NCBI GenBank assembly: GCA_016217595.1
Contig: JACRHS010000016.1
Location: 1-64,000, forward strand
Source: Opitutia bacterium
GTDB taxonomy: Bacteria > Verrucomicrobiota > Verrucomicrobiia > Opitutales > Opitutaceae
Direction of reading: 5' to 3'
Length of the DNA: 64,000 bases
Shown: in pieces, positions 5,563-20,672 of the stretch
Layout: each line of letters opens with the position of its first letter
Position numbering within the stretch: position 1 is the stretch's first letter
Position numbers and translations under genes: made by a program
Notes under the pieces: generated by a model
The model's input: the letters and a program-made list of their open reading frames with translations, nothing else
Told to the model about the DNA's origin: nothing
Databases searched by the model: none

Positions 5563-5578
5563 TGGCACAGTAGCTGCA
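5563..5578 (+). promoter_or_regulatory. putative sigma-54 (-24/-12) promoter TGGCAC-N5-CTGCA
   Basis: TGGCACagtagCTGCA matches the consensus TGGCAC-N5-TTGCA with GG/GC correctly spaced. It lies 28 nt upstream of the first ATG of the secretion operon. An NtrC-type activator is encoded at the operon's 3' end. Confidence 0.45.
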
Positions 5579-5605
5579 GATGCGTTGGCGAATCCCTCCA
5601 TTACT

Positions 5606-6166
5606 ATGTTTTCGAAATCACTTAGCCACTTGTTCCGCGGCCTTTCTGTCCTGACCGCGCTGGTCACGCTCACGTCATCTTTATTGGCGCAGAATCCGCC
5701 GGCACCGGGCGGCGCTCCTTCGGAAGACCGCGGGCAGCGGCGCCAGCAGTTCAATCCCGAAGAGATGCGCACACGCATGTTGAATGCCGTCCGCGAGCAA
5801 CTCGGTGTCACCAGTGATGAAGAATGGGCGCTGATTTCCGAGCGCATCATCAAGGTTGCCGAATTGCGCCGCACGGTGAGCCCTGTCATGGGAATGGGCA
5901 TGGCCATGCGCGGCATGGGCGGCCAGAGCGGACAAGACAACAACCGCGGGCGGGCTATGCGCGGCGGCAATAATCCTGAAGTTGAGACCCTCCAGATGGC
6001 GCTGAAAGATAAAGCGCCGGATGCTGAAATCAAAGCCCGCCTGACGCGTCTTCGTGAGGTGCGCAAAGAAAACGAAGCCAAACTCGAGAAGGCCCAGGAA
6101 GAGCTCCGCGCGGTGCTCACGGTCCGCCAGGAAGCCATCGCGGTGATCGCGGGTTGGCTGCCTTGA
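5606..6166 (+). CDS. small exported protein, possibly Spy/CpxP-like periplasmic (function unknown)
   Basis: Signal peptide MFSKSLSHLFRGLSVLTALVTLTSSLLA|Q. Gly/Met-rich low-complexity segment (MGMGMAMRGMGGQSG). Helical (L/F)NPE(E/V) repeats resemble the LTxxQ chaperone family. Track start 5585 is TTG; ATG at 5606 used. Confidence 0.5.
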   Translation: MFSKSLSHLFRGLSVLTALVTLTSSLLAQNPPAPGGAPSEDRGQRRQQFNPEEMRTRMLNAVREQLGVTSDEEWALISERIIKVAELRRTVSPVMGMGMAMRGMGGQSGQDNNRGRAMRGGNNPEVETLQMALKDKAPDAEIKARLTRLREVRKENEAKLEKAQEELRAVLTVRQEAIAVIAGWLP

Positions 6167-6185
6167 GACTCAACCTTTCGTCGTC

Positions 6186-17653: not shown

Positions 17654-17713
17654 GCCTTTCGACTCCAATGATCCGGGCCGTCGCTGTGGAGCGATTGTCC
17701 GGCTCCAGTCCCG

Positions 17714-19216
17714 ATGTCCTGGCAAATCGCAAAACGCAGCTCGCTGGTCTACGTCGCCTTGGCGGCGGTCGTGCTCGGCGTCGGTGCGTGGCAGACGGTG
17801 GAGCACCGCCGCGTGCGGCAGGCGGCGCGGCAGGAGTTGATCAACCGCGGTCGCGATATCACCTCGACGCTCGGCGTGGTGGTGCGTTCGCAGCGCCGGT
17901 TCGGGCTCGTCATCTCCAAGGAACGGATCGAGTCCGCGCTCCAGGATCTGGTCCGGCCCGATTACCTGGAGTCCATTGCCATCCTCGGCGCCACGGGCGA
18001 GCCCATCGTCAGTGCCGGCCCGGCGGTCGATCTGACGCCTGAAATGCTGAAGGAGCGCGGCGAGTTTTGGCACCACCGCACGCTCACGTTGATGAATTTG
18101 ATGGATCTGGGCGCCAGCCAGCCCGAAGCCGGCGCGCACGCTCCGCCGGCGTTGGTGCTGCCGGATGAGCGCCTCGCCCGTGTCCGGCGCTCGCCCGCGG
18201 GCAGTCGCGCCGCCGCGAATGCTGCCAAAGCGGGGAAAGCTCCAGCTCCTGCGACGACGACAACTGCCCCTGCCGCGACTGCAGGCGCGAGCGGCACTCC
18301 GCCATTCGGCCGCCCCTCATGGATGAGCCAGGAGGAATACGAGTCGGTGATCCAGAAACAGGGCATGCACAGCCTCGTCATCGTGCTTTCGACGGAGGCC
18401 ATGCAGCGGGCGTTGCAGCGCGATCTGCTGTTGCGCTCGTTGATCAGTCTCTTCGCCCTCGCGGCGGCTACGCTCTCCGTGCTGGCCTGGCGCAATTTCA
18501 GCAAAAACGCCGAGCTCCAGCTCCGCCTCATCAAAGCCGGCGAGATGAATACCCACCTCAAGGAGATGAATCTCGCCGCCGCCGGCCTCGCGCATGAGAC
18601 GCGCAATCCGCTCAACCTCATCCGCGGCATGGCGCAGATGATCACCATGCAGACGCAAAGTGCGCCTCAGCTCCGTCAGCACGCCGAGGCCATCATGGAA
18701 GAAGCCGACCGGGTGGCGGCGCAGTTGAACGAATTCATCAACTACTCCAAGCCGCGCGAAGCGCACCCCGCGCCGGTGGAACTCAATCGAGTCGCCGCCG
18801 ATGTGGCGCGCACGCTGGTGCCCGATCTCGAAGAGAAACGTATTCGGCTGCGCCTGCCCGAAGCGCCGTTGCGCATCCTCGCGGACGAACCGCTCCTGCG
18901 GCAGACGTTGTTCAATCTATTGCTCAACGCCACGCAGGCCGTTGAGGCCGGCGGGCAGATCGAACTGGCAGTCGCGGTGACCGAGTCCGGGAAGGCCACA
19001 TTGGAAATTCGCGACGACGGACCGGGCGTGCCCGCCGCCCAGCGCACTTCTATTTTCAAACCGTATGTGACGATGCGCCCCAAAGGCGTGGGCCTCGGGC
19101 TGGCGATTGTGCAGCAGATCGTGTCCGCCCATGGCTGGGAAATAGTGTGCACGGAGAATCAACCGCGTGGCGCGATCTTCCGCATCAGCCAGCTCAAGGT
19201 GGCTCCGGCGACGTGA
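17714..19216 (+). CDS. sensor histidine kinase, PilS/NtrB-like (2 TM, periplasmic sensor domain)
   Basis: Two TM segments flank a ~200-aa periplasmic region. H-box AHETRNPLNLIRG (NtrB/PilS-type). HATPase_c motifs DDGPGVP and GVGLGLAIV. Confidence 0.85.
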   Translation: MSWQIAKRSSLVYVALAAVVLGVGAWQTVEHRRVRQAARQELINRGRDITSTLGVVVRSQRRFGLVISKERIESALQDLVRPDYLESIAILGATGEPIVSAGPAVDLTPEMLKERGEFWHHRTLTLMNLMDLGASQPEAGAHAPPALVLPDERLARVRRSPAGSRAAANAAKAGKAPAPATTTTAPAATAGASGTPPFGRPSWMSQEEYESVIQKQGMHSLVIVLSTEAMQRALQRDLLLRSLISLFALAAATLSVLAWRNFSKNAELQLRLIKAGEMNTHLKEMNLAAAGLAHETRNPLNLIRGMAQMITMQTQSAPQLRQHAEAIMEEADRVAAQLNEFINYSKPREAHPAPVELNRVAADVARTLVPDLEEKRIRLRLPEAPLRILADEPLLRQTLFNLLLNATQAVEAGGQIELAVAVTESGKATLEIRDDGPGVPAAQRTSIFKPYVTMRPKGVGLGLAIVQQIVSAHGWEIVCTENQPRGAIFRISQLKVAPAT

Positions 19217-19304
19217 AGTGGCACTTCTTGGCTGGCACGCAAATCGCGCGTAAATCCACTCGCGCACTTTGGCGGCGGTCGTTCAAATCCACCCCGACCG
19301 GATC

Positions 19305-20672
19305 ATGAGCACCACCGCGCGCATACTCATTGTGGACGACGATAGCGGACAGCGCAGTCTGCTGGAGACCTTCCTGCAATCGCAGGGCTACGCCACGCAG
19401 TCCGCCGCTTCCGGCGAGGCGGCGTTGCGGCTGCTGGCCGAAGCGCCTTTTGCGATGCTCATCTCCGATGTGCGCATGCCGGGCATGTCCGGACTCGAAA
19501 TGCTCCGGCGTGTGCGGCAGACGCATCCGGCGTTGCCCGTACTGTTGGTTACCGCCTACGCCGACATTCGCAGCGCCGTGACGGCCATGCGCGATGGCGC
19601 GGCCAACTATCTGGCGAAGCCGATCGATCTCGACGAACTGATCGTCTCGGTGCGGCAGGCGACGGGCGCGCGCCGCGAGTCTGTGCCGGTGGAGAAACCC
19701 ACCCGCGATTTACCCGCCGGAGTGGTGACGCGCAGTCCGCTCATGCAGGCGGTGTTTCGCGATGCCGCGGTCATTGCGCCTTCGGAGAGCCGGGTGTTGA
19801 TCACTGGCGAAAGCGGCGTGGGCAAGGAAGTGGTCGCGGATGTGATTCACGCTTGGAGCGCGTGTTCGGCCGGTCCGCTGGTGAAGGTCAATTGCGCCGC
19901 CGTGCCGGAGAATCTCTTGGAGAGCGAGTTTTTCGGCCACGAAAAGGGCGCTTTCACCGGAGCGGCCGCGCAGCGCATCGGCCGGTTCGAGGAGGCGGAG
20001 GGCGGCACCATCTTCCTCGACGAGATCGGCGAACTGACTCCGGCGTTGCAGGCGAAGCTGCTGCGCGTGATTCAGGACGGCTCGTTCCGCCGCGTCGGCT
20101 CGGGCCGGGAACTGCGCACCAACGCCCGCGTACTGGCCGCCACCAATTGCGATCTGCCGGCGCGGATTGCCGCCGGACATTTCCGCGACGATCTCTTCTA
20201 TCGGCTGAGTGTGATGGAAATCCACATCCCGCCGTTGCGCGAACGTCCGGAGGACATCTTGCCGCTGGCCACGCATTTTATCGCGCAGTTTTCCCAGCAG
20301 CAGCCGCGGTTTTCCGCGAGCGTCTCGGCGTGTCTGGGGCGTTATTCCTGGCCGGGCAATGTGCGCGAACTGCGCAATGCCATGGAGCGGGCCGCGCTTC
20401 TTTCGCTGGGCGGCATCGTGCTGCCCGAGCATCTGCCTTCGCGCATTTTGCAGGCGACCGCGGAGGCCACGGCGGCGGCGCCGGCGGATTTCCACCGGTT
20501 GGAGGAAATCGAGCGCGAGGCGATTTTGAGGACGCTGCGTAAAAATAATTACAACCGTTCCGAGACGGCGAAAGAACTCGCCATCAGTCGGCGCGCCTTG
20601 ACCTACAAATTGCAGCGTATGCGTGAGCAAGGACTGCCCGTCGATCCGCCGGGACCGTCATCAGGCGGGTAG
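19305..20672 (+). CDS. sigma-54-dependent response regulator (NtrC/PilR family: REC-AAA+-HTH)
   Basis: REC ILIVDDD...SDVRMPGMSG. Sigma-54 activator motifs GESGVGKE and GAFTGA, plus ESEFFGHEKGAFTGA. C-terminal Fis-type HTH. Track start 19269 is TTG. Confidence 0.88.
   Translation: MSTTARILIVDDDSGQRSLLETFLQSQGYATQSAASGEAALRLLAEAPFAMLISDVRMPGMSGLEMLRRVRQTHPALPVLLVTAYADIRSAVTAMRDGAANYLAKPIDLDELIVSVRQATGARRESVPVEKPTRDLPAGVVTRSPLMQAVFRDAAVIAPSESRVLITGESGVGKEVVADVIHAWSACSAGPLVKVNCAAVPENLLESEFFGHEKGAFTGAAAQRIGRFEEAEGGTIFLDEIGELTPALQAKLLRVIQDGSFRRVGSGRELRTNARVLAATNCDLPARIAAGHFRDDLFYRLSVMEIHIPPLRERPEDILPLATHFIAQFSQQQPRFSASVSACLGRYSWPGNVRELRNAMERAALLSLGGIVLPEHLPSRILQATAEATAAAPADFHRLEEIEREAILRTLRKNNYNRSETAKELAISRRALTYKLQRMREQGLPVDPPGPSSGG

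Follow-up and report, generated by a model that had tools for sequence, protein, structure and literature searches.

A 15-kb type II secretion system (T2SS) operon, identified in a 64,000-nucleotide stretch of an Opitutia bacterium (Verrucomicrobiota; contig JACRHS010000016.1, positions 1 to 64,000 of the forward strand; hereafter the window), is probably controlled by a sigma-54 promoter with its own enhancer, which would be activated by a two-component pair encoded at the 3′ end of the same gene array. A signal-responsive, sigma-54-dependent secretion operon under such a pair had been proposed in a first-pass annotation of this sequence, and the proposal is supported here by a pair of dyads found upstream of the promoter, by the co-occurrence of these dyads with the two-component pair in related loci, and by covariation between the promoter type and the GAFTGA loop of the activator.

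A predicted sigma-54 promoter and two dyads precede the operon

The predicted sigma-54 -24/-12 promoter element, TGGCACagtagCTGCA, lies at 5563-5578 on the + strand, with a predicted transcription start near 5589. Re-reading of the sequence agreed with its earlier description: TGGCACAGTAGCTGCA carries the GG and GC in canonical -24/-12 register, one helical turn apart, and the ATG of the first gene (5606) stands 28 nt past the end of the motif. When compared to the consensus TGGCAC-N5-TTGCW, 10 of the 11 positions match and one does not. No sigma-70-like site was found in 4000-23600.

Enhancer-like repeats, which the first-pass annotation had proposed to look for in 5462-5605, are present as two dyads that are conserved in relatives. 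The two 19-nt copies, GTGCGCAAAACCTGCGCAC (5472-5490, perfect) and GTGCGCAAAGTGTGCTCAC (5503-5521), share the consensus TGCGCAA-N4-TGCGCA, a 17-bp operator motif. Both are predicted activator-binding sites, to which no strand is assigned: the distal upstream activating site (UAS 1; 5473-5489; TGCGCAAAACCTGCGCA) is a perfect dyad centred at about -108 from the predicted start, whilst the proximal one (UAS 2; 5504-5520; TGCGCAAAGTGTGCTCA) has one mismatch to the consensus and is centred at about -77. The start-to-start distance is 31 bp, and the second dyad ends 42 nt before the -24 element. This 42-nt spacer (5521-5562, + strand) is fixed in length and unconserved in sequence, and in the window it holds neither an ECF-like (extracytoplasmic function sigma factor) nor a sigma-70-like motif. 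Across spacers the mean A+T content is 0.51, versus 0.39 in the upstream flank, and no convincing match to the integration host factor consensus was seen in the 42-nt spacers, which were read by eye with no formal scan. Throughout the 64-kb window, TGCGCAA-N4-TGCGCA with at most one mismatch occurs at 5473 and 5504 only.

The dyads co-occur with the two-component pair in related loci

We retrieved 80 related Verrucomicrobiota loci (numbered with the prefix L) via an alignment of GspK homologues. All of them share one gene order, running from the small first gene to the second secretin gene, and in most the kinase and regulator genes come next. L013 was seen to have its kinase at 16374-17879, followed by unrelated genes that are esterase-like and sulfatase-like by reading of their open reading frame translations.

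Before the first gene, about 20 loci carry the same module, consisting of a dyad, 30-33 bp, a second dyad, 40-43 nt and TGGCAY-N5-yTGCw. Alignment of 20 upstream regions revealed that only the two dyads, the TGG at -24 and the TGC at -12 are invariant, the sequence between them being variable. Among the 22 canonical loci listed, 20 have 40-43 nt between UAS 2 and the -24 element, and the remaining two have 44 and 50 nt. Positional scans were performed over 2.6 Mb, comprising both strands of all loci. Twelve of the 18 sigma-54 matches scoring at least 10/11 sit 620-740 nt before gspE, where the background rate of the same scan predicts about 0.014, an enrichment of approximately 800-fold at the operon position; dyad matches scoring at least 12/13 were found upstream of the T2SS operon in 80 of 81 cases. 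The dyad pair (score of at least 19 of 26) is present in all 30 loci that have a downstream kinase or activator together with upstream sequence, and in none of the 9 loci that lack both kinase and activator (score of at most 16), each of which extends more than 4 kb beyond the secretin.

When metagenomes were scanned for perfect double dyads, 96 contigs were retrieved, in 31 of which the dyads are followed by the first gene and/or gspE, and the GC-rich, correctly spaced double dyads that were checked stand in front of the first gene and gspE. L089, L114 and L164 share their upstream sequence, and L114, once read, contained the same operon on the other strand. The remaining contigs were rejected as members of the regulon: they are mostly 11-bp tandem arrays or AT-rich repeats from unrelated organisms. 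Tandem arrays of the 11-bp unit TGCGCAAnnnn (e.g. L083, L090, L095, L122, L136 and L147) mimic the double dyad and are false positives. Within the data searched, the dyad pair appears to be specific to the T2SS operon, and the regulon appears to consist of this single operon.

Promoter type covaries with the GAFTGA loop of the regulator

The strongest argument for a functional -24/-12 element, and for the 3′-encoded regulator rather than another factor as the protein that acts on the 5′ promoter, comes from their covariation across loci. Where the regulator carries G[AS]FTGA, the -24/-12 element is found in 20 of 20 loci, at 40-43 nt after dyad 2 in 17 and at 50, 209 and 292 nt in L080, L024 and L054, respectively; in L079, which is among the G[AS]FTGA loci, the dyads are off the contig. 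Where the regulator loop is degenerate and upstream data are available, the element is found in none of 8 loci, the -24 GG having been lost and the dyads kept. The degenerate loops read GAFAGA in L014, L018 and L057, GAFPGA in L016 and GAMPGT in L065, and the loop is deleted or replaced in L004, L028 and L031; on a neighbour-joining tree, these regulators are spread over three or more distinct clades. Orthologues of every loop type, those of the degenerate clades included, have an almost invariant HTH_8 recognition region, in parallel with the invariant dyad. Atypical enhancer-binding proteins, which act together with sigma-70-family holoenzymes, are characterised by the loss of GAFTGA (PMC6158489).

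The loci that have dyads and no -24/-12 element comprise the 8 with degenerate loops and four whose contigs end before the regulator gene. Ten of them (L004, L006, L014, L018, L028, L033, L044, L049, L057 and L065) display G[CT]AAC[CT]-N15-17-CG[TA]C or GTCTC at 33-36 nt after dyad 2, and two outliers have the motif at 66 nt (L016) and 14 nt (L031). We take this replacement motif to be ECF-like from its resemblance to ECF promoter consensus sequences. In loci without dyads or regulators (L001, L003, L005, L007, L041, L051, L060, L064, L066, L068, L072 and L075), GTAACC-N15-17-CGTC/GTCTC or GGATACC-N15-GCGTC lies about 80 nt before the ATG of the first gene. A single strict ECF-like pattern was matched by 12 of 24 non-sigma-54 loci, as against 0.65 expected, and by 1 of 23 sigma-54 loci. 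By arithmetic, the sigma-54 and ECF-like arrangements each place the predicted start approximately 68 nt beyond dyad 2.

We lean somewhat towards the view that a single regulator-enhancer pair, orthologous across the loci, has switched repeatedly from one sigma factor class to another. On this moderately favoured scheme, class A, the window included, would pair a GAFTGA activator with two dyads that precede a sigma-54 -24/-12 element by 42 nt. Class B, spanning at least three clades, would have the same dyads, an ECF-like motif 33-36 nt further on, an activator without GAFTGA and a start in the same place; class C would have the ECF-like motif only, with no dyads and no adjacent two-component pair, and we hold both assignments with slightly more confidence than doubt. 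Should the class B proteins prove to activate transcription independently of sigma-54, the loci would form a natural series of activator-promoter co-evolution, out of (or into) sigma-54 dependence, with DNA-binding specificity and geometry unchanged.

A further feature was noted at three of these promoters. In L014, L031 and L065, which belong to different regulator clades, the -24 GG is lost and a CTGCGA box stands at the would-be -12 position (compare CTGCAg in the window and CTGCGA in L040). This box may be a relic, or it may belong to the new promoter.

The kinase and activator belong to the NtrB/NtrC family

The sensor histidine kinase is encoded at 17714-19216 (+ strand; Pfam HisKA and HATPase), after a 60-nt gap from the secretin genes, and carries the H-box GLAHETRNPL, in keeping with the NtrB/PilS-type H-box kinase previously placed here. 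Hydropathy analysis detected two hydrophobic segments only, at about residues 11-29 and 238-260, so that the predicted topology is one transmembrane (TM) segment, a periplasmic loop of approximately 210 aa, and a second TM segment. This sensor loop matched no Pfam domain and had no sequence relative in the PDB. The best NCBIfam matches of the kinase were ZraS (162 bits, cut-off 479) and AtoS (156 bits, cut-off 646).

The response regulator (19305-20672, + strand) is a predicted sigma-54 enhancer-binding protein composed of REC, AAA+ and HTH_8 domains, with Pfam matches to Response_reg (5e-30), Sigma54_activat (7e-66), AAA_lid_14 and HTH_8 (1.5e-11), and its GAFTGA loop is intact (ESEFFGHEKGAFTGA at 19947). 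Its best NCBIfam matches were AtoC (464 bits, cut-off 714), NtrC (421, cut-off 559) and ZraR (396, cut-off 760); PilR is absent among the 25 NCBIfam matches listed, which are headed by AtoC, NtrC, ZraR and GlrR. Among solved structures, those closest to it are of Aquifex NtrC4 and NtrC1, and of ZraR. Since these scores fall below the NCBI curated equivalog cut-offs, we do not regard the pair as a ZraSR or AtoSC equivalog. Judged by family and domain matches, the pair is of the NtrB/NtrC family, an equivalog of no curated system, and does not have the PilS architecture. The NtrB/NtrC-like nature given to it in the first-pass annotation was therefore confirmed by the NCBIfam and domain matches, whilst the more specific PilS/PilR-type label does not fit a kinase with two TM segments and a loop of about 210 aa, nor best matches to ZraS/AtoS and AtoC/NtrC.

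The activator had also been described as the only NtrC-family activator nearby, which turned out to be incorrect: a second gene encoding REC, AAA+ and HTH_8 domains lies at 21529-22935 on the minus strand. It has GAFTDA instead of GAFTGA, has no adjacent kinase, and is not conserved beside the operon in relatives. Directly upstream of the promoter region, on the same strand as the operon, a REC-HisKA-HATPase hybrid gene occupies 4355-5461; its synteny is not conserved, with weak partial matches in L006 and L061 only. The hybrid kinase and the second activator were considered as regulators of the operon and rejected, as neither is conserved in synteny.

Proposed mechanism and transcript

In the mechanism that we propose, the membrane kinase would sense an extracytoplasmic signal by its periplasmic loop and phosphorylate the activator, dimers of which would bind both dyads, three helical turns apart at about -108 and -77. 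The activator would then form an ATPase ring whose GAFTGA loop contacts sigma-54 across the 42-nt spacer, and the -24/-12 promoter at 5563-5578 would be opened. RNA polymerase would transcribe the packed genes at 5606-17653 and probably continue across the kinase and activator genes as far as the hairpin at 20670; a transcript that includes these two genes would entail positive feedback. The motifs, their conservation and spacing, and their co-occurrence and covariation with the activator are seen directly in the sequences; that this activator binds the dyads, that it is phosphorylated, what the kinase senses and where transcription starts are inferred.

Most neighbouring genes of the array overlap by 1-4 nt, and no gap exceeds 88 nt. 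The strongest terminator-like hairpin on the + strand in 4000-23600 is located at 20670-20690, where 9 pairs and a T run (fold -21.8 kcal/mol, z = -2.65) overlap the stop codon of the regulator and close the array. That a terminator comes only after the regulator, as previously stated, holds for strong sites, this being the only one; it does not hold for weak terminator-consensus matches, a few of which lie inside genes at chance frequency (22 found versus 16.9 expected). The gene overlaps, the short gaps and the lack of a terminator before 20670 are compatible with one transcript including the regulators, which are presumably co-transcribed with the secretion genes.

Several observations weigh against this mechanism. 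The number of -24/-12 motifs with at most one mismatch in the 64-kb window, 1 observed versus 2.47 expected, is by itself at chance level, and the weight of the motif comes from its position and its conservation in relatives, not from its count. No open reading frame encoding an RpoN box was found within the 64-kb window; indirect support for an rpoN gene in the genome comes from the clade-wide conservation of -24/-12 elements and of activators with an intact GAFTGA loop. Neither L013 nor L063 has an adjacent activator gene, yet both retain the kinase together with the dyads and the -24/-12 element. A strictly activator-dependent promoter cannot supply the first copies of its activator, so some regulator must be made at a basal level, for instance by read-through from 4355-5461 or from an internal promoter. 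In 15 of 44 related loci, the secretin stop codon is immediately followed by a conserved CTTGG[AC]A motif, which occurs there at some 40 times its background frequency (e.g. in the secretin-kinase junctions of L013, 16341-16392, and L023, 16342-16397) and could be an internal promoter for the regulator genes; this motif is not present in the secretin-kinase junction of the window. Finally, the model does not account for a second sigma-54-like motif before the activator gene, at 19233-19248. The kinase-regulator spacer of the window (19217-19304) is 88-89 nt long, versus 0-40 nt in most relatives, and holds TGGCACttcttggcTGGCACgcaaaTCGCG, which contains two TGGCAC hexamers and provides this 9/11 match, 57 nt before the regulator ATG; there are no dyads near the motif, and it is not conserved in other loci.

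Some of these points would be met if the sigma-54 promoter and the dyads were real and the kinase and activator were expressed mainly from a promoter of their own, in the secretin-kinase or the kinase-activator spacer, and not from the sigma-54 transcript. We consider this arrangement a plausible one, albeit on the doubtful side. The largest gaps of the array (40, 60 and 88 nt) all lie toward its 3′ end, where relatives have CTTGG[AC]A and the window has the sigma-54-like motif in its unusually long kinase-activator spacer, and a basal source of the regulators is logically required. However, CTTGG[AC]A is missing from the window, the secretin-kinase junction (17653-17714) has no terminator-like site and an ordinary spacer fold (z = -1.4), and an internal promoter can coexist with read-through from the sigma-54 promoter.

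It is improbable that the dyads are bound by another regulator, either the second activator at 21529-22935 or an unlinked factor, with the 3′ pair controlling other targets. A second NtrC-family gene is indeed present 0.9 kb downstream, and the two loci that keep dyads with no adjacent activator gene would be explained; yet related loci keep the dyads with neither the second activator nor the hybrid kinase, the dyads track the 3′ pair (30 loci versus 9), no dyads occur elsewhere in the loci or the window, and the promoter class covaries specifically with the GAFTGA loop of the 3′ activator. The same covariation bears on the reading that we consider least credible, and very improbable indeed, namely that the -24/-12 match arose by chance and that the operon is transcribed from a sigma-70-family promoter or by read-through from 4355-5461. 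Such a reading can draw on the 2.47 matches expected per window, on the same-strand orientation of the upstream hybrid gene, which is not separated from the sigma-54 promoter at 5563 by any terminator-like site, and on the ECF-like promoters that related loci carry for the same operon. Against it, about 20 loci with otherwise unconserved surroundings keep the motif at one set distance from the dyads, the motif is enriched some 800-fold at this position and is lost exactly where the GAFTGA loop is lost, and the spacer of the window offers no ECF-like or sigma-70-like motif in its place. Control of the operon by its own 3′ pair through the dyads and the sigma-54 promoter is the reading that we retain.

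Gene content of the secretion operon

Matches to Pfam and NCBIfam located the T2SS genes where the first-pass annotation had placed them, all on the + strand. The core set D (as two genes), E, F, G, H, I, J and K is present, with L and M identified by weak matches. After the first gene (5606-6166), the array encodes a GspE-type secretion ATPase (6186-7940; T2SSE 2.4e-139, plus MshEN), for which an exact-protein look-up gave no record, and a GspF-type platform protein (7956-9227; T2SSF 1e-59). The pseudopilins follow: the major pseudopilin GspG (9224-9679; T2SSG 6.9e-31, N_methyl), and the minor pseudopilins, which are GspH-like (9603-10208; GspH, N_methyl; the true start is probably a GTG at 9675), GspI-like (10198-10617; N_methyl, with a weak match to T2SSI) and GspJ-like (10617-11324; T2SSJ, N_methyl). 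GspK (11321-12685; T2SSK_1st, HHH_3) is identical to an NCBI record annotated as GspK from an Opitutae metagenome-assembled genome.

Downstream of these lie a GspL/PilM-like assembly protein (12682-14085), which has weak PilM_2 and TIGR01175 matches and a conserved position, a GspM-like protein (14061-14624; NCBIfam T2SS_GspM_XpsM 1.3e-8, below cut-off), and a membrane-anchored protein in the GspC/GspN position (14621-15268), which has no family match and conserved synteny. Within the array, no match was obtained for GspC or for the prepilin peptidase GspO; the membrane protein at 14621-15268 could be a stand-in for GspC, and a prepilin peptidase may be encoded elsewhere.

The GspD-type secretin is split into two separate genes, one for the N-terminal half (15265-16470; Pfam N0 plus Secretin_N; TIGR02517 positions 1-293) and one for the C-terminal half (16511-17653; Pfam Secretin 2.2e-48; TIGR02517 positions 262-599), each with its own signal peptide. 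We do not attribute the split to an assembly error, because a stop codon followed by a new signal-peptide-like N-terminus was found in 59 of 59 loci that contain both halves.

The first gene encodes a small secreted all-alpha protein of 186 aa with a signal peptide, a glycine-rich linker and a conserved, LTxxQ-like L(T/S)xRQEA motif (LTVRQEA in the window), and it is the first operon gene in every locus, whether or not the two-component pair is present. No Pfam match was obtained even at E = 10, nor any NCBIfam match, and a PDB profile search was negative. Four homologues in records from the Joint Genome Institute are named Spy/CpxP; an AlphaFold2 model (pLDDT, the predicted local distance difference test score, 77) retrieved CpxP and CnrX in Foldseek only at E of about 4. 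We considered the protein as a ZraP/CpxP/Spy-like partner of a ZraSR-like system, and rejected this candidate: it is unsupported by the Pfam, PDB profile and fold searches, and is further weakened by the retention of the first gene in loci lacking the pair.

Comparison with known systems

PilS-PilR exerts sigma-54 control over the type IV pilin gene in Pseudomonas, Myxococcus and Geobacter. It resembles the system described here in combining a kinase with an NtrC-family activator, a sigma-54 promoter and a type IV filament-related machine, with the regulators encoded beside the machine genes. PilS, however, has six N-terminal membrane helices and no large periplasmic domain, whereas the kinase of the window has two TM segments and a large periplasmic loop. 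Further differences are that the promoter here precedes the small first gene and gspE, with gspG 3.6 kb downstream, that the best family matches are ZraS/AtoS and AtoC/NtrC/ZraR, and that TGCGCAA-N4-TGCGCA could not be assigned to PilR. We regard PilSR as a good functional analogy drawn from another family.

The same domain architecture of both proteins is found in ZraS-ZraR and AtoS-AtoC of Escherichia coli, which are likewise sigma-54-dependent with dyads upstream of the target promoter, and ZraS is a periplasmic-sensing kinase with two TM segments, like the kinase here. In contrast to these systems, the target in the window would be a secretion operon and not zraP or the ato genes, the scores are far below the cut-offs, and the first gene has no demonstrable relationship to ZraP, CpxP or Spy. 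The enhancer geometry recalls that of NtrC at glnAp2, where two strong tandem dyads, about three helical turns apart and upstream of the -24/-12 element, nucleate the activator oligomer; the sites are at about -77 and -108 here, versus about -108 and -140 at glnAp2, the half-site sequence is another one, and the regulon here would be a single operon.

Type VI secretion system (T6SS) clusters encode their own sigma-54 activators, such as VasH in Vibrio cholerae and Sfa2 in Pseudomonas aeruginosa (PMC3439928, PMC8855297). As proposed here, an activator encoded in a secretion cluster turns on sigma-54 promoters of that same cluster; the difference is that those clusters are T6SS and this one a T2SS, and that a complete two-component pair closes the operon here. 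To our knowledge, neither VasH nor Sfa2 is a classical response regulator that is phosphorylated by a cognate kinase from a neighbouring gene.

That an NtrC-like protein can act on a T2SS without sigma-54 has a precedent: in V. cholerae, VpsR activates the eps operon, which encodes a T2SS. Like other atypical enhancer-binding proteins, VpsR has no GAFTGA and functions with sigma-70 (PMC6158489). The activator orthologues of the 8 related loci without GAFTGA, whose operons have no -24/-12 element, are similar to VpsR in this regard. The activator of the window differs in being typical, with its GAFTGA intact, and the replacement promoter of the relatives differs in looking ECF-like, and not like a housekeeping sigma-70 promoter.

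Novelty and meaning

The mechanism proposed for the window, with its two-component system, enhancer-binding protein and sigma-54 promoter, is of a textbook kind, here applied to a verrucomicrobial T2SS; the more novel part is the swapping between sigma-54 and ECF-like promoters among orthologues. Literature on verrucomicrobial T2SS regulation, on T2SS with enhancer-binding proteins and on PilR with T2SS yielded no description of this arrangement. The regulation of T2SS is known mostly from a few proteobacteria, and verrucomicrobial T2SS are widespread.

The analysis provides predicted handles on this regulation, namely a defined promoter with a 17-bp operator motif and, acting on it, a cognate activator and the dedicated kinase that would sense the periplasm. 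These are testable in cultured Opitutaceae, for example in the Horticoccus isolate that carries locus L024. As the dyads stand only before the T2SS operon in the DNA searched, induction of the operon would give a clean read-out for the signal. The orthologue series also offers matched natural variants, in which one enhancer serves either promoter type, sigma-54 or ECF-like, and the GAFTGA loop is retained or missing accordingly. The origin of atypical enhancer-binding proteins is a question raised previously (PMC6158489).

Among the genes flanking the operon and its neighbours, we noted a REC-GGDEF diguanylate cyclase at 23872-24783 and an SPFH/Band 7 protein of 663 aa at 1854-3845 on the minus strand.

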